This document shows, one piece after another, positions 13,014-54,817 of a stretch of 64,000 nucleotides of DNA (the first letter of the stretch is position 1; every line of letters begins with the position of its first letter). The position numbers and the translations under genes are program-made. Below the pieces are notes generated by a model. It did no database searches. It had not been told where the DNA came from and saw only the letters and a list, made by a program, of their open reading frames with translations. The stretch comes from a virus, in IMG/VR virus record IMGVR_UViG_3300025437_000011, positions 44,476 to 108,475 of that record; one strand, 5' to 3'.

Positions 13014-13790
13014 ATGGATGCGATAATTCAGGGGCCAATATACGTAAATGACACTCCTAGTGTTATTTATAATTTATTAAATACGTCTTTTATTGATCGG
13101 GTAATCGTTTCTTGCTGGGAAAGTTGCCCAGATATATTTCCCCTTAATGACCGAGTGATAGTTATTAAAAATAAACCCAATGCTAATTCTGGGTATCAAA
13201 ACAGAAACTTACAAATTCAATCTACAAAAGCTGGTTTAGAAAAAGTAACTTCAGAATATTGTGCAAAATTTAGATCTGACCAGATAATTGCAATATCAAG
13301 TTTAGAAATGATGAATAGATTCTTTCATAAGTTTAAAGAATCTAATCTTAGATATACCAATGGTCTCAAACCGAAATCTAAAATTTTTGTTTGTGGAGAT
13401 TTTTGGCCATTACCATTTCATCCAAGAGATCATGTTTATTGGTCGGACACAGAAAGCATGAAAGTTTTATTTAGTTTGCCGTATGATGAATCACCAAAAT
13501 TTGATACGGAGCGCTTTAATGAGGCAACACGCGCAGAAACATATATTGGTAGTTACTATTATGCAAAATTTAATAGTGAGATCTATAAAATGATCGAACA
13601 GCAAGGTACTTACCTATGGGATAACGCCCCCAAAAGAAACGAGGCATTAGAACTATCACTTTCGATGAAAGACGAAGTTTTTAAAGTATTCCCAAGAATT
13701 GAGATGACTTGGCCCAAATATAATATCTACGGATATAAATATAATGAGCAATCAGTATGGGAAAGATGGCACGATGAAAAATGGGACTAA
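13014..13790 (+). CDS. WavE-like LPS synthesis / glycosyltransferase
   Basis: IIQGP, NRNLQIQSTKAGL, KFRSD, FHPRDH. Confidence 0.75.
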   Translation: MDAIIQGPIYVNDTPSVIYNLLNTSFIDRVIVSCWESCPDIFPLNDRVIVIKNKPNANSGYQNRNLQIQSTKAGLEKVTSEYCAKFRSDQIIAISSLEMMNRFFHKFKESNLRYTNGLKPKSKIFVCGDFWPLPFHPRDHVYWSDTESMKVLFSLPYDESPKFDTERFNEATRAETYIGSYYYAKFNSEIYKMIEQQGTYLWDNAPKRNEALELSLSMKDEVFKVFPRIEMTWPKYNIYGYKYNEQSVWERWHDEKWD

Positions 13791-44450: not shown

Positions 44451-44867
44451 TTATAGTGTGTAGCTTCCTACTAAATTAACATTATCGTATACATTTAAAT
44501 TTCCAGCAATATAAGTATTAGCGACAGAACCTGAAACTACCTGAACAGCATAATAATAGGCTCCGGCGCGCATCATCATTTGGGAGCCTGAAAGTTGATT
44601 TAAAATTGCATAATTACCACTTGGCCCAGTAATTGAAATTGTTCCATTTGATGTTGACCATTGGTACGCAACAGTCTGCCATTGACCATTATAATCAATA
44701 TTATCTTGATATAAATTTGTCTCTGTATACTGTGTTCCTAAAGTTCCAATAATAGATAATCCACTCAAATTTATAGGATTATTATTTACATCTGTAAAAA
44801 TAAAGGTGATAGGGCCATAACTATCGCCCCTATAGGCATCAGGTAAATTATAAAGCGTAGGAATCAT
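44451..44867 (-). CDS. baseplate/fibre-attachment protein (BppU N-domain-like)
   Basis: RGDSY..F...PINLSG...GAYYYAVQV...GNLNV. Confidence 0.6.
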   Translation of the reverse strand: MIPTLYNLPDAYRGDSYGPITFIFTDVNNNPINLSGLSIIGTLGTQYTETNLYQDNIDYNGQWQTVAYQWSTSNGTISITGPSGNYAILNQLSGSQMMMRAGAYYYAVQVVSGSVANTYIAGNLNVYDNVNLVGSYTL

Positions 44868-47659: not shown

Positions 47660-48520
47660 GTGACCGATAAAACAATATATTTTTATATTGATCCCAAATA
47701 TGGATCTGCTTACTTAAGGGGCTGGCAAGTAAGACAAAAGCTTCGCCAGTTGGGGTATAATGCGAGAATCATCACTCGTCCAAACCCAAACATTAGGGAC
47801 TCCATAATTTTTTGTGTTAAAACTCGTATATTAAATACTCAAATTTTTGATACCAGCAACTTTATTATTTGGGATTCGGTAGATTTTATTGACAGAGAAA
47901 AAAGACTGAGTGATTTTACACGTTTAGCAGATGTTGCTGATATAGTTGTTTATCATAATACAGTTCTTCCTCATTATTTTAAATCAGAGCATAACATTGA
48001 AAAGGAATATAGAATAATTCCGCACCATTGGGATGCCAGAATTCAAAATACTAAACCTCACGAAGATAAATTTTCGATTGGATACATAGGAAATGATATA
48101 TCTAGCATCCATTTGAATTTAATTCAAAATAAATATTTTATCATTGGTAAAAATTTCCTAGGTAAGCACTTCGTAGATGAACTTAATAAATATAGTTGTC
48201 ATTTTGATATAAAAGATCCAGATCATTTTAAATTTAAAACTTGTTCGGCAATGAAACTCTCAACAGCCGCCGCTGTTAATAAATGCATTATTTTAAATAA
48301 AACATGGTCAAATCTAGACCTATTACCAGAAAATTCTATACTTTTTACCGAAGACAGTAGCGAAGAGGCGGCTAGAAGTAAAATAGAAGAAATAGCTTCT
48401 ATTTATCAAACACCTGAATGGGATCATATCCTGATCGACTTACAGAAGATTAAAGAAAAAACTTCCTTGGATAATATCATTAAATTATACGAAAATATTA
48501 TTATTGAAAATGCAAACTAA
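47660..48520 (+). CDS. putative GT-B glycosyltransferase
   Basis: GSAYLRG, IPHHWD, IGYIG, KLSTAAA. Confidence 0.55.
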   Translation: MTDKTIYFYIDPKYGSAYLRGWQVRQKLRQLGYNARIITRPNPNIRDSIIFCVKTRILNTQIFDTSNFIIWDSVDFIDREKRLSDFTRLADVADIVVYHNTVLPHYFKSEHNIEKEYRIIPHHWDARIQNTKPHEDKFSIGYIGNDISSIHLNLIQNKYFIIGKNFLGKHFVDELNKYSCHFDIKDPDHFKFKTCSAMKLSTAAAVNKCIILNKTWSNLDLLPENSILFTEDSSEEAARSKIEEIASIYQTPEWDHILIDLQKIKEKTSLDNIIKLYENIIIENAN

Positions 48521-49175
48521 AGTAATCACATCAATAGTCGGAGACGGACGGGACTGGTTACATACCCCAATGCCGGAAGATAATGTAGAGTTTGTAGCAT
48601 ACACAAATCAATTTGCGCCGCATTGGACAATAAAATCACCTTGCGATATTTTTTCGGAGCCAAAAAAGAATGCTAAAATTCATAAGATTCTTTTACATAA
48701 ATATGAGGATTGCGATTACTCGATTTGGATTGATGGAAATGTAAATTTATTGCAACCTGTGAATAAAATTATTGCAGATCTTTTGGGGGATAATGACCTA
48801 GCAATTACGCAACATCCCAATAGAAATAATTTATTTGAAGAGGCTGAACATATAAAAATAAAAAAAGTAGAATATCCGCATATTGTAGACAGGCAGTTAG
48901 AAAGATACAGAAATCAAAAAGAAGAAATTATACAAGAAAATAAACTTTATTTTGCAACTGTCTTGATAAGAAAACATTCTAAAAAAATTAATCGGTTTAA
49001 TGATGCTTGGTGGGCGGAAATTTGTACAAACTCATTTCGTGACCAAATTTCTCTTCCGTATGTTCTTCGTCAATTTTCTGACCTTAAAATTAATACGTTT
49101 AATTTAGAAACAATGAACAGATATTTTCATAGAAAAGACCATCCAAGAATTACATATGGCAACAATGAAATATAA
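48510..49175 (+). CDS. DUF616-type glycosyltransferase
   Basis: SIWIDGN, HPNR, WWAEI, RDQISLPY. Confidence 0.8.
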   Translation: MQTKVITSIVGDGRDWLHTPMPEDNVEFVAYTNQFAPHWTIKSPCDIFSEPKKNAKIHKILLHKYEDCDYSIWIDGNVNLLQPVNKIIADLLGDNDLAITQHPNRNNLFEEAEHIKIKKVEYPHIVDRQLERYRNQKEEIIQENKLYFATVLIRKHSKKINRFNDAWWAEICTNSFRDQISLPYVLRQFSDLKINTFNLETMNRYFHRKDHPRITYGNNEI

Positions 49176-51213: not shown

Positions 51214-51999
51214 TTATTTACTATGTAAAATTTCAATTAATATTTCATGCAATTTATTATTATCTTCCTTTAACTCTTTAATTTTATTTTTAAACGGTTT
51301 AAAAAAAATTTGCAGATTATCACCATATTGCGTTATGGCTTCCATAAATCTAAACGAAACCCTATCTTTCAGATGTAGAGTTATTAATTTATTATAATCA
51401 ATAAATAGCACATCGTCTTCTTCCCTGTGCATATTTAAGTTATTAACCAAATTAATTGGTTCGCTATTTTGCTGATTATAGCAATAAACATTCATAGCTA
51501 AAGTTACATCGCTATAACGAACATCTCTAATACTGAAATTATTATTTAAAATAAACTCCCCAAGTTTAAAAAATGTTTTTGCATTCATGAGTATACCAGA
51601 ACCGCCATGAATATGAGGTATAGTGCCAAATTCTTGAGTATCAGATGGTGAAACTCTACCATGTATTTCTAAAGCATCCTTAGAGAGCATAGGTAAAAAA
51701 TTTAGTAATTCTTTTTTATTAATATATGTATCATCATCACCAATAAAATACCAGTCAAATTCGCTATGAGAATGATAATCAAAAATATATAAAAGCTTAT
51801 TTATACAAGAAAGATAATCATCCGTATTAGAAAGTTTAACAATCGGAATTTTATCGAAAGTATTAAAACCGCCTATAAGAAAAATTTTAGAATTCAACTC
51901 TTTATTTAAATGCTTATCTATATGCGCATAAAGAGGAATTGTTCTTTTTTCATGGAACCCCTTACATACCAAAAAATTATAGCAAATATTTTCGGACAT
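51214..51999 (-). CDS. Fringe-like (GT31) glycosyltransferase
   Basis: DWYFIGDDDTY, GGSGILM, SDVTL, ITLH. Confidence 0.8.
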   Translation of the reverse strand: MSENICYNFLVCKGFHEKRTIPLYAHIDKHLNKELNSKIFLIGGFNTFDKIPIVKLSNTDDYLSCINKLLYIFDYHSHSEFDWYFIGDDDTYINKKELLNFLPMLSKDALEIHGRVSPSDTQEFGTIPHIHGGSGILMNAKTFFKLGEFILNNNFSIRDVRYSDVTLAMNVYCYNQQNSEPINLVNNLNMHREEDDVLFIDYNKLITLHLKDRVSFRFMEAITQYGDNLQIFFKPFKNKIKELKEDNNKLHEILIEILHSK

Positions 52000-52065: not shown

Positions 52066-52164
52066 AAGAGAGTAAGAAATTACTGCGTGTAATTAACTTA
52101 CTAGGAGAATCCATTTTTCCTTAACGATCTTTGACAGTAAAATCTAATTAATGAAATATTTTAT

Positions 52165-52602
52165 GGGGGCGTATAGTTTCGACTCTTAAAATAGATTATT
52201 ATTGCATGTAGTGGTTGATCGTCCGGCCACTTTAAAAGACGATTAAAAAACTAAACGCAAAAGTTATTACTAATGCAGTTGAGGCAGTTAAGTCAGCAAT
52301 GACAAACGTTGTAGAGTTCTTCTGTGAGGAAGAGAGCTACGCGCTAGCCGCCTAAACGCCAAAGCAGATCCTATTAAAGCTTTGGAAAATAAAATAGGTT
52401 GAGCCAATCATGTGTCGCTCATTAAATAATCATGAGGGTGCTTGTAGACTCTTCACTATAAGAGGTAGGACTCTAAACATAGATAGGTTAATAACACCTT
52501 GTTACCTAAAGTCAACGGAAGTACGAAGTTATTGAAGCATGTATAGATATAATAATTGAACTTTAAGAACACAGGGGGTGCGATTCCCCCTCGCCTCCAC
52601 CA
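52165..52602 (+). ncRNA. ssrA: tmRNA
   Basis: 5' GGGGGCG..TTCGAC, 3' CGCCTCCACCA with G3:U70; tag ORF 52257-52355 ending YALAA*. Confidence 0.93.
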
Positions 52603-52764: not shown

Positions 52765-52962
52765 CACTTTTCGACTCTCACGAACGGCATTTCAAAATTA
52801 TCTTGATATACCAATCAAATAGTGTAATAATCAGTTCATAGTCGATAAACTTCGACAAATGATCTTTGATAGTAAAATTTAATTTTACCTTCTCTAGTTT
52901 AAAAGTAAAACAGTTCTTTGATAAGGAACGGAACAAGGAGCGTTACCTTGGAGAAGGATTTT

Positions 52963-53037
52963 TGAAGTGTAGCTCAATGGTTGAGCGCTTGGCTGTTAAC
53001 CAGGTGGCTGTAGGTTCGAGTCCTACCACTTCAGCCA
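52963..53037 (+). tRNA. tRNA-Asn(GTT)
   Basis: TGAAGTG/CACTTCA; CT GTT AA; encoded CCA. Confidence 0.92.
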
Positions 53038-53040
53038 TTT

Positions 53041-53216
53041 TCGAGGGCGGCGTGGAAACCATAGACACGCGGCGCAGATTGATTACAGATGGGGGGCGAT
53101 TGCTTCAACCGAGACCCTTCCTATCCGTTGGATCGACAAACATCGTTTGCGTCGGAATAAGAATATGCGGAGGTTGAAGTCTGCATGCGCGGAAGTAATG
53201 TACTGCCCCTCAAACA
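53041..53216 (+). ncRNA. tRNA-like RNA with an expanded (about 115 nt) domain replacing the anticodon arm
   Basis: GAGGG/CCCTC acceptor-like stem, GCGTG/CACGC D-like arm, internal GCAGATT/AGTCTGC and CTTCAACC/GGTTGAAG helices. Confidence 0.55.
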
Positions 53217-53313
53217 ATTTCAGCTAAAGATTCTGTAGTGGTAGTGCTGAACTACCGTCCGAAGACTACAGAACACGTTTGCGAGGTGTTCGTCAAAACC
53301 CGCCCAATTTCAT

Positions 53314-53389
53314 GCGGATGTGGCTCGACAAGAAAGGCAACGGTCTCCAAAACCGTCAAATGTAGGTGCGATACCTACCATCCGTGCCA
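53314..53389 (+). tRNA. tRNA-Trp(CCA)
   Basis: ACGGT-CT CCA AA-ACCGT; TGCGA T-loop; encoded CCA. Confidence 0.85.
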
Positions 53390-53395
53390 ATTTAT

Positions 53396-53474
53396 GCGTA
53401 GTTTCCGTAGAGGAATGAGACGGAGGTGATCTAGACATTGCCGTTAATTAGCTCAATACTAACGCTACGCTCCA
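53396..53474 (+). tRNA. divergent tRNA-like gene, anticodon ambiguous (CTA possible)
   Basis: GCGTAGT/GCTACGC-TCCA; CCGT/ACGG D-stem; TTAG-CTCAATA-CTAA T-arm. Confidence 0.5.
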
Positions 53475-53607
53475 ATTAACATACTCGGTAGTTCCCTCTC
53501 CCTGATTGAAAGGTTGGGTGTAAGGTGATCGGGTTTTTGGTACATACAAAACTTAGACATAATTCGGGACGCCGAAGGTTTTAAGGACAAAAGTACCATC
53601 CATTTTT

Positions 53608-53931: not shown

Positions 53932-54005
53932 GCTTCAGTAGTGAACTGGATTCATCACGAAACGCTACGGACGTTTAGAACAAGGTTCGATTCCTTGCTG
54001 AAGCA
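53932..54005 (+). tRNA. tRNA-Arg(ACG)
   Basis: GCTTCAG/CTGAAGC; AAACG-CT ACG GA-CGTTT. Confidence 0.88.
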
Positions 54006-54049
54006 TTTTCTTTAATTATATTTTATAGTCACATACCCTATATAACCCA

Positions 54050-54817
54050 ATGAGTCCCAAAATAGCCTTCATATTTCTTATCTATGATAAAATTAATCAA
54101 GAAAGAATATGGTATGATTTTTTTAAAGATATTAATCCGGAATTATATTCTATCTATATTCACTATAAAATAGAAATGCCGCAGCAACCATTACTATTTT
54201 TTGAAAAATTTAAATTAAATAATTGCATACAAACCAAATGGGGCGAAGTATCCTTAGTAAAGGCGCAAAATCTTGCAATCAAAGAAGCCCTAAAAGATCC
54301 CTTAAATAAAAAATTTATAACAGTTAGTGGCGCATGTATTCCTATAAAAAACTTCAATCAAATATATAAAAAGATTATAGAAAATGAAAATAGCTATTTT
54401 AATGAAAGCATAGCCAGAAATAATTTGGCTAGAAATTCTCCGTTATTTGAAAAAATAATACCGTTCAAAGCATCCCAGTGGATGATTCTTAGCAGAAAAC
54501 ATGCAATTTATTGTACTCTTAGCGATAAATTAGTTGACTTATTTATTAAAGTTCCAATTTTTGCAGATGAATATTTTTATATTACATTATTAAAAAATCA
54601 TCCTATATTTTCATCAGAAATTATAAACTATCCCGTTACAAATACTAAGTGGAATATTAAAAATAAAATGCATCCTATAGAACATATAGATATTTCCCAA
54701 TCCTCATTAAATGAAATTTTTTTATCTGAAAGTTTTTTTGCTAGAAAATTTAATCAAAATTGTAAAGTAGGGCAAATAGATTTATATTCTTATGTAAATT
54801 TATCGACAATACATTGA
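54050..54817 (+). CDS. core-2/I-branching (GT14) glycosyltransferase
   Basis: KIAFIFL, YSIYIH, TKWGEVSLV, SGACIP, KASQW, ADEY, FARKF. Confidence 0.85.
   Translation: MSPKIAFIFLIYDKINQERIWYDFFKDINPELYSIYIHYKIEMPQQPLLFFEKFKLNNCIQTKWGEVSLVKAQNLAIKEALKDPLNKKFITVSGACIPIKNFNQIYKKIIENENSYFNESIARNNLARNSPLFEKIIPFKASQWMILSRKHAIYCTLSDKLVDLFIKVPIFADEYFYITLLKNHPIFSSEIINYPVTNTKWNIKNKMHPIEHIDISQSSLNEIFLSESFFARKFNQNCKVGQIDLYSYVNLSTIH

Follow-up and report, generated by a model that had tools for sequence, protein, structure and literature searches.

The tRNA gene cluster of a freshwater phage probably contains the gene of a structured non-coding RNA (ncRNA) of about 170 nucleotides (nt), which represents a new and narrow family, forms a cassette with one lineage of tRNA-Asn in an operon of transfer-messenger RNA (tmRNA) and transfer RNA (tRNA) genes, and would be released by the enzymes that process tRNAs. 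The DNA in question, hereafter the window, is a 64,000-nt stretch (positions 44,476 to 108,475) of the IMG/VR virus record IMGVR_UViG_3300025437_000011, and the gene, hereafter the element, lies on its + strand between tRNA-Asn and tRNA-Trp, 440 nt downstream of the phage tmRNA; coordinates are those of the window unless a contig is named. Judged by its homologs, the element is conserved more strongly than its surroundings, and its fold on the + strand, as read from the aligned sequences, is a hairpin (53050-70) followed at once by a long-range helix, H2, closing a 69-nt multi-hairpin domain. An earlier note on this DNA, made from the letters alone, had described here a tRNA-shaped RNA with a large structured domain in place of the anticodon arm, directly after tRNA-Asn. 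The placement was confirmed by ARAGORN and Rfam, the element starting 5 nt past 53037, and a structured ncRNA on the + strand of a tRNA operon is borne out by the covariation of H2 and by indels in natural variants.

Compensatory Changes in a Long-Range Helix

The evidence that carries this reading comes from an alignment (A1) of the window with three homologs, two in IMG/VR contigs (L002, 13294-13465; L003, 6962-7133) and one in a further metagenome contig (L012, 1289-1460). The window differs from the others in two blocks of 4 nt that lie 73 nt from each other, GCAG being replaced by ATAT at 53074-77 and TTGC by ATAT at 53147-50, and the blocks are mutually complementary in both versions. 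They are part of H2, a long-range helix of 7 base pairs (bp), in which three of the seven pairs have undergone double changes and pairing is 100% preserved throughout A1; sliding either partner ruins the pairing. Further variants (X6, X14 and X20) were read from contigs of other public runs and used only where covered or listed, X14 coming from a pond metagenome and X20 from a freshwater RNA library. Four versions of H2 are thereby available, all fully paired: GGCGCAG/TTGCGTC in the window, GGCATAT/ATATGTC in the three homologous contigs, GGCATAT/ATATGCC in X14, where T53152C converts a G-U pair to G-C, and GGCATAG/CTATGTC in X20. The pair 53077:53147 accordingly occurs as G-U, U-A and G-C. 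At the level of sequence comparison H2 is proven by compensatory change, and it encloses a 69-nt domain (53078-53146).

This result revises the fold that had been proposed earlier. All the stems listed in the earlier note are present: GAGGG 53043-47 with CCCTC 53207-11, GCGTG 53050-54 with CACGC 53066-70, GCAGATT 53074-80 with AGTCTGC 53178-84, CTTCAACC 53103-10 with GGTTGAAG 53172-79, and GCGG 53189-92 with CTGC 53203-06. However, the helix GCAGATT/AGTCTGC, which was thought to close a domain of about 115 nt, is refuted because AGTCTGC is invariant while GCAG has become ATAT in three of the four sequences, in which two of the seven pairs, both G-C, are lost. The enclosed domain is that of H2, 69 nt long. 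Covariation among homologs, which had been named as a check, was found in H2, whereas the acceptor-like, inner and T-like stems are invariant or show G-U to G-C changes only.

The D-like hairpin, H1, directly abuts H2. This part of the earlier description held, although in the aligned sequences the hairpin is weakly supported, by a single G-C to G-U change (G50-C70 in L003 and L012); a loop change, C59T, is tolerated. The G-U pairs of H1 and H2 are valid on the + strand only. Elsewhere in A1 and the run contigs, substitutions fall in loops or junctions (53059, 53128, 53154, 53169, 53171 and 53202) or switch G-C and G-U pairs (53070, 53152 and 53204). The exceptions are C53121A in X6, by which the outermost pair of a candidate helix (H7, below) is lost unless its register shifts by one, and a single-base deletion at 53211. 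The latter and an extra G after 53090 are the two single-base indels which, on the sequences compared, rule out coding; the block changes would be non-conservative in any reading frame.

A Probable Pseudoknot and Two Ways to Close the Molecule

Inside H2 lie two small hairpins, in which the sole change is T53128C in the first loop, and a run of G residues (53091-96) that can pair with CCTTCC (53116-21) to form H7. The domain also contains CTTCAACC, the perfect complement of GGTTGAAG. Because the former is inside H2 and the latter outside it, the helix between them, H4, would be a pseudoknot, and a probable one.

For the ends of the molecule, two mutually exclusive models can be drawn (Table 1). 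In model A, GAGGG pairs with CCCTC and the arm GCGG/CYGC is formed, with H7 inside the domain. In model B, TGGGGGGCG (53090-98) pairs with YGCCCCTCA (53204-12) in a helix of nine pairs, H3, which is stacked on H4, and it is then H2 that becomes the pseudoknot. The duplex energy of H3 is -15.9 kcal/mol versus -7.0 for the acceptor-like stem and -2.8 for the T-like arm. However, energy does not choose between the models, because their nested parts, before pseudoknot terms, come to -52.2 kcal/mol for A and -54.6 kcal/mol for B. Natural variation is divided as well. T53204C is compatible with both. In X6, which combines C53121A with one more G in the G-run, a shift of register by one base preserves H7, but H3 would be bulged; this slightly favors A. 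A53202G in L003 and L012 adds a C-G pair in a 5-bp arm abutting H3, which slightly favors B.

Table 1. Positions of the element, its parts and the adjoining tRNA genes, all in window coordinates.
Feature	Position	Strand	Basis or remark
tRNA-Asn(GUU), encoded CCA	52963..53037	+	ARAGORN and Rfam (70.2 bits); conserved together with the element as one cassette
A/U-rich spacer TTTTC, from the CCA of tRNA-Asn to the element	53038..53042	+	same letters in all homologs
Structured RNA element, about 170 nt, 53% G+C	53043..53212	+	homolog conservation, G+C, G-U pairs valid on + strand only
GAGGG, 5' strand of acceptor-like stem; partner CCCTC 53207-11	53043..53047	+	present and invariant; rivalled by 53090-98/53204-12
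H1, D-like hairpin GCGTG / 11-nt loop / CACGC	53050..53070	+	in every predicted fold
H2, 5' strand GGCGCAG	53071..53077	+	compensatory changes with 53147-53
G-run TGGGGGGCG; partner CCTTCC 53116-21 (H7) or YGCCCCTCA 53204-12 (H3)	53090..53098	+	alternative predicted pairings
CTTCAACC, 5' strand of candidate inner helix H4	53103..53110	+	complementary to 53172-79 at all 8 positions; no change in any sequence
Two small hairpins, ATCC-GTT-GGAT (53123-33) and CGA-CAAACA-TCG (53134-45)	53123..53145	+	minimum free energy and consensus folds
H2, 3' strand TTGCGTC	53147..53153	+	compensatory partner of 53071-77
GGTTGAAG, 3' strand of candidate H4	53172..53179	+	invariant; changes of X20 at 53169 and 53171 lie just outside
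T-like arm GCGG / 10-nt loop AAGTAATGTA / CYGC	53189..53206	+	T53204C, G-U to G-C; no T-loop consensus
C-rich 3' end YGCCCCTCA, then A/T-rich trailer, no CCA encoded	53204..53212	+	sequence
tRNA-Trp(CCA), next gene of the operon	53314..53389	+	ARAGORN and Rfam

Conservation and Distribution

Among the contigs the element is 94-98% identical (94-95% between the window and L002 or L003), and the block comprising tRNA-Asn and the element is 92-94% identical between the window and these two contigs. The neighbors are less alike: 68-78% for the flanking protein genes, 71-75% for tmRNA and 77-89% for tRNA-Trp. In L002, L003 and L012 the arrangement is uniform, a tRNA-Asn of one lineage being followed by TTTTC, by the element and, 9 nt further on, by tRNA-Trp. 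The window alone among the four contigs has an extra structured module of about 90 nt (about 53220-53307), which separates the element from tRNA-Trp.

Pattern scans, exact or degenerate, of viral contigs (five patterns), metagenomes (one) and 185,579 prokaryotic genomes (one) turned up nothing beyond L002, L003 and L012; the matches L010 and L011 proved to be L002 and L003 over again, and L040-L042 were rejected as chance. With a covariance model of the element, R1, no homolog emerged from the complete records of 24 related phages, from L004 and L005 or from the tRNA regions of T4 and T5, all matches being spurious, AT-rich and at most 14 bits. A blastn search of 50,697 GenBank phage records with the element gave no match. 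Nor is the element present in L004/L028, the closest phage by protein identity (89% in a neighboring protein of 168 amino acids and 93% in DNA polymerase), where the slot holds an endonuclease-like open reading frame (ORF) and the tRNA-Asn of L004 is of another lineage and in another place. Contigs covering the element occur in three further DNA studies, and natural variants are spread over several independent ones. The low proportions of matching words in many other runs were not counted toward any conclusion on habitat. Because the element was found in three other contigs and in none of the 24 related phages, the GenBank phages or the 185,579 genomes, the family is, on this sequence evidence, real but narrow in distribution, and it behaves as an accessory cassette.

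Relation to Known RNAs

The element lies as a non-tRNA gene on the tRNA strand, flanked by tRNAs, which is the placement of the stable RNAs of phage tRNA clusters. Bacteriophage T4 has two of them, rnaC (139 nt) and rnaD (119 nt), also called species 1 and 2 RNAs, annotated as stable RNAs of the tRNA cluster with no function assigned. Like the element they lie inside the cluster, right after a tRNA and on the same strand, and are of similar size. They arise by processing of the T4 tRNA cluster, and their stability has been shown experimentally, whereas the element is known here from sequence. T4 rnaC has a terminal stem and arms in a tRNA shape with large inserts; unlike the element, however, it possesses a canonical T-arm (GGGTTCGAATCCC), and the element is not similar to rnaC or rnaD by sequence or covariance model. 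Phage T5 (GenBank AY543070) has eight miscellaneous RNAs, stable or tRNA-like, interleaved with its tRNAs (RNA1, RNA2 and RNA3, designated "tRNA-like," and RNAI, III, IV, 2H and X), of which RNA3 is immediately downstream of tRNA-Asn and RNA2H is 172 nt long. Again there is no homology: with its filters off, R1 scored at best 5.6 bits in the T4 tRNA region and 6 bits in that of T5.

Larger RNAs of the same surroundings are GOLLD and ROOL, the latter about 580 nt long. These phage and prophage RNAs, whose function is not known, are pseudoknotted and often found beside tRNA islands (PMC12286853). Unlike the element they form multimeric cages and are several times larger (GOLLD often exceeds 800 nt; PMC12286853), and the identity was rejected on size and for want of a match to their Rfam models in the window.

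In its best thermodynamic fold the element resembles the tRNA-like domain of tmRNA, in that a Y-shape, as seen in model B, is made up of a G-rich terminal helix of 7-9 bp, a few unpaired nucleotides, a long helix around the interior and a hairpin ahead of the 3' strand. It differs from tmRNA in having no CCA, no T-loop, a covarying helix in the would-be tag frame and a 48-nt 5' extension pairing into the interior. The earlier note had set aside a second tmRNA, and we agree: neither a tmRNA (RF00023) nor a fragment of one was matched, and local alignments to three phage tmRNAs score 18-19 versus a shuffled mean of about 17 (standard deviation about 2.2). The sole candidate tag frame, ending in FASE, is overlapped by H2, whose block changes are non-conservative. 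Derivation from the neighboring tmRNA or tRNAs, for which the sequence ACAG-GGGGG-GCGATT and a tmRNA-like 5' end were considered, was also rejected, the scores being no better than those of shuffles. A group I intron had likewise been dismissed, correctly in view of the length (170 nt versus a core of at least 200 nt), a location outside any gene and no Rfam match.

With YrlA and Y RNAs the element shares a concept only, that of a modular phage-encoded RNA with a tRNA-like part; it lacks their long bulged terminal stem, has no Rfam match to them, and the TROVE/Ro gene (PF05731) was not found in the 108-kb record, which is about 70% complete. The Y-RNA-like scaffold suggested earlier was speculation, as neither TROVE/Ro nor RtcB nor a CCA-adding gene was found in that record. 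More generally, the Rfam comparison that had been recommended, YrlA included, returned nothing on the element, either at gathering thresholds or at E<=10 (801-nt search). Three smaller ideas were rejected as well: a sponge for a CsrA-type protein (five GGA motifs versus roughly four expected, two of them lost in X20), a small ORF behind GGAGG 53170 (ATG 53185), which lacks conservation, since T53204C replaces Leu with Pro and the frame runs into tRNA-Trp in L002, and an anticodon-like GTT loop at 53127-29, which reads GCT in the homologs.

A survey published in 2023 lists 10,006 candidate structured RNAs, some of them tRNA-like, in IMG/VR and RNA-virus sequences (PMC10690425). The element, with one proven helix and a probable pseudoknot, is therefore classed as a new family of a long-known kind: it has no kin in Rfam, T4 or T5, but the candidates of that survey may include it.

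Alternative Explanations

The first alternative is that the element is a genuine tRNA mimic, an acceptor/T-like minihelix that would be seen by RNase P, the CCA-adding enzyme or an anticodon nuclease and would serve as a decoy protecting phage or host tRNAs. We regard this as unlikely, though it is the strongest of the competitors. Its appeal is the layout: a 7-nt 5' strand, a D-like hairpin, an abutting stem, a long "variable" segment, and a 4-bp arm abutting a 5-bp terminal stem with an unpaired A, and these tRNA-like pairs are all kept in the homologs; T4 species 1 RNA, with a true T-arm and terminal stem, is a precedent. The earlier note had read the element in this manner, and one part of its layout stands, namely a stem that closes a large insert right after the D-like hairpin. 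However, the covariance model of tRNA (RF00005) does not match, and ARAGORN, at thresholds of 70-80% and with introns of up to 200 nt, called no + strand tRNA at the element. The T-loop TTCRANY, the GG elbow partner in the D-loop, a 7-nt anticodon-like loop and CCA are all missing, the 3' end reading CCCTC-A-AAC (or AAT); instead of the 5-bp T-stem and 7-bp acceptor stem of a tRNA, there are a T-like arm of 4 bp with the 10-nt loop AAGTAATGTA and a terminal stem of 5 bp. The 3' strand has a stronger alternative partner in the 9-bp helix, and the stems concerned show no covariation. A decoy for anticodon nucleases, as proposed earlier, was speculation with no specific support.

It is improbable, in our judgment, that the element is a functionless, decaying remnant of a tRNA-like or tmRNA-like gene whose high identity reflects recent horizontal transfer of the tRNA-Asn cassette. 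Degenerate tRNA-like genes do occur in the array (52888-52958, 17.7 bits; 53396-53474, missed at default settings), the element keeps company with a single tRNA-Asn lineage and is missing from close relatives, and one 19-nt stretch is 68% like T-arms. Against this, similarity to the tmRNA and tRNAs of the phage lies within the shuffled null, and the variants come from several independent studies. The four versions of H2 are always complementary, and the remaining substitutions, with hardly an exception, fall in loops or are G-U/G-C switches, which shows that selection has acted on RNA structure after divergence.

Still less credit is due to a cis-acting processing element or small self-cleaving ribozyme, similar to the theta ribozymes, that would set the 3' end of tRNA-Asn or the 5' end of tRNA-Trp rather than act in trans. 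Theta ribozymes have been proposed for 3' trailer processing of phage tRNAs (PMC10879173), and like these and other ribozymes of the hepatitis delta virus (HDV) type beside phage tRNAs, the element directly follows a tRNA. In addition, the helices can be drawn in an order (5' strands of H2 and H3, small hairpin 53134-45, 3' strand of H2, hairpin 53164-86, 3' strand of H3) that imitates the nested double pseudoknot of HDV-like ribozymes (P1-P2-P3-P1'-P4-P2') with a 7-bp "P1." Of these helices, however, only H2 is supported, and a 35-nt insert interrupts "P2" and "P3." The first "P1" pair is G53071-C53153 in all seven sequence versions rather than the conserved G-U of the cleavage site, and the would-be L3 (CAAACA) has no CC for P1.1. 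With its large inserts the element is three times the size of these ribozymes, and no Rfam ribozyme model matches at E<=10. Were cleavage to occur at 53070/71, tRNA-Asn would keep 33 extra nt, and a contig from an RNA library is unbroken across 53070/71 and 53090/91.

A DNA-level or coding feature (a short ORF, a homing-endonuclease target or a recombination site) can practically be discounted: mechanical ORFs overlap the element (52866-53177 on the + strand, 53083-53217 on the - strand) and homing-endonuclease-like ORFs occupy variable slots of these arrays, but natural variants carry single-base indels, compensatory changes lie 73 nt apart, the G-U pairs hold on the + strand only, and the + strand ORF runs through tRNA-Asn.

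Several points also weigh against the ncRNA gene that we prefer. The predicted stability is at chance level, with a minimum free energy of -55.4 kcal/mol and a z-score of -0.83 relative to shuffles (-0.0 to -1.3 for sub-domains). Real covariation is confined to one helix and the homologs are all at least 94% identical, so that the pseudoknot, the tRNA-like frame and the rest of the modeled fold are unproven. The high identity could in part mean recent exchange of the tRNA-Asn and element cassette between phages, and since no homolog was found in the 24 related phages, the closest included, the element is dispensable. Moreover, no partner protein was identified, the search of the 108-kb record (70% complete) for TROVE/Ro, RtcB and CCA-adding genes being negative, and the RNA-library contig described below could stem from contaminating DNA.

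Possible Biogenesis and Action

An outline of the life of this RNA, if it is an ncRNA gene of the tRNA operon, would be as follows. The element would be transcribed together with the tRNAs and released by 3' processing of tRNA-Asn and by RNase P acting at tRNA-Trp, whose cleavage site would determine where the spacer RNA ends on its 3' side; exonucleases would then trim this RNA back to the terminal helix. The G-run and the C-rich 3' end would close the molecule either as the 5-bp acceptor-like stem with the T-like arm or as the 9-bp helix 53090-98/53204-12, and the invariant CTTCAACC of the 69-nt domain would pair with GGTTGAAG outside it to make the pseudoknot. The released RNA, about 170 nt, would persist as a stable RNA like T4 species 1 and 2 and the RNAs of the T5 tRNA region. 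Release by the enzymes that mature tRNAs would be the simplest mechanism; the element has a tRNA-like G+C content (0.53, versus 0.30-0.40 for the window) and the maturation of the flanking genes makes cuts on both sides. One freshwater metatranscriptome run yielded a contig of 157 nt that spans 53052-53208 only; it cannot show ends or strand, and its agreement with a discrete transcript is a weak hint.

As to action, a tentative guess is that the RNA, acting as a mimic or scaffold, binds a protein of the host or the phage that takes part in tRNA or translation metabolism. A bolder version, which we think rather improbable, has the RNA fold compactly into a pseudoknotted structure whose tRNA-like outer frame presents the 69-nt domain as a four-way junction, locked to the "variable" segment by CTTCAACC/GGTTGAAG; such an RNA would represent either a new class of phage effector RNA, a decoy for a host defence nuclease directed against tRNA or for a tRNA-processing or tRNA-modifying enzyme, or a new class of ribozyme that matures the phage tRNA operon.

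The Surrounding tRNA Array

The source is a 108-kb IMG/VR viral contig, about 70% complete, whose genes include those of a DnaE-type polymerase, a ribonucleotide reductase, a UvsX-like recombinase and a DnaB helicase. According to ARAGORN and Rfam, tmRNA (52165-52602) and 12-13 tRNA genes lie on the + strand within 45.5-55.4 kb of the window, with small ORFs, glycosyltransferase-like genes and several non-tRNA spacers rich in G+C between them. The neighboring tRNAs and tmRNA encode CCA, and short A/T-rich stretches, for example CCATTTTC, CAATTTC and CCAATTTAT, separate neighboring modules. The glycosyltransferase-like genes, unusual company for a tRNA array, are located at 48504-49175, 51214-51999 (- strand) and 54050-54817, the types being TOD1/MUCI70-like, Fringe-like (weak) and Core-2/I-branching enzyme family (E 1.6e-31). 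A direct repeat of 27 nt (89% identical) occurs at 52123-52149, ahead of tmRNA, and at 52858-52884, ahead of the tRNA-Asn unit. Both copies are downstream of promoter-like sites (52131-52160 and 52803-52831) and are probably operon leader signals; in L003 the second is conserved at 95%.

Besides the element, the array holds at least four other unassigned structured modules and a tRNA-like gene with a CUA anticodon. The module at 53220-53307 consists of a long hairpin (53231-53273) and a T-arm-like GCGAG...CCGC and ends in CCCA; a pond-metagenome variant has compensatory changes in the inner stem (T53242C/A53254G and A53243C/T53253G) and a re-registered outer stem. L004 has a counterpart with a different hairpin ahead of tRNA-Trp (13300-13385), while L002, L003 and L012 have no such module. 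The tRNA-like gene at 53396-53474, with a 7-bp acceptor stem and TCCA, is called by relaxed ARAGORN only. Its homolog in L012 (1665-1743) has two double compensatory changes (T-A to C-G and G-C to U-G) in an extended anticodon stem around a conserved T-CTA-G loop. Because compensatory changes surround this conserved loop in L012, the gene is, by comparison of the two sequences, a conserved tRNA-like RNA with a CUA (amber-reading) anticodon; it is missing from L003 and L004. The sequence called tRNA-Ile(gat) by ARAGORN at 52888-52958 is degenerate (Rfam 17.7 bits), its T-arm resembling that of tRNA-Arg (53978-54009) but having a spoiled T-loop, and L003 and L012 have no counterpart between the same promoter-like region and tRNA-Asn. 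The spacer at 53477-53607 (L003 7212-7340, L004 13520-13650, L012 1790-1881) gives no tRNA call or Rfam match; because it is about 85% conserved where protein genes are about 75% conserved, it probably represents one more structured RNA of this array. L012 has yet another module, of about 110 nt, after tRNA-Trp (1545-1655), with a GACTG/CAGTC closure and the T-loop-like motif GGTTCGAT, flanked by the same A/T-rich spacers.

These arrays appear to be built from interchangeable cassettes. Variable slots contain endonuclease-like or zinc-finger ORFs (L004 12560-13160, - strand; L002 13600-14094), and the endonuclease-like ORF of L004 sits where the window has tRNA-Asn and the element. By analogy with segB in T4 and the heg genes in T5, the variation of the slots fits cassette turnover driven by homing endonucleases.

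Significance

Stable non-tRNA RNAs in phage tRNA clusters have been known for decades from T4 and T5, with GOLLD and ROOL as recent large relatives. Taken alone, the element is one more orphan RNA of narrow distribution, and its importance is moderate. It is, however, small enough for direct biochemistry, and the finding is timely, as phage tRNA arrays are being tied to evasion of host defences that cleave tRNA. Each new conserved family with a proven helix provides a further handle on the role of the RNAs of phage tRNA clusters.

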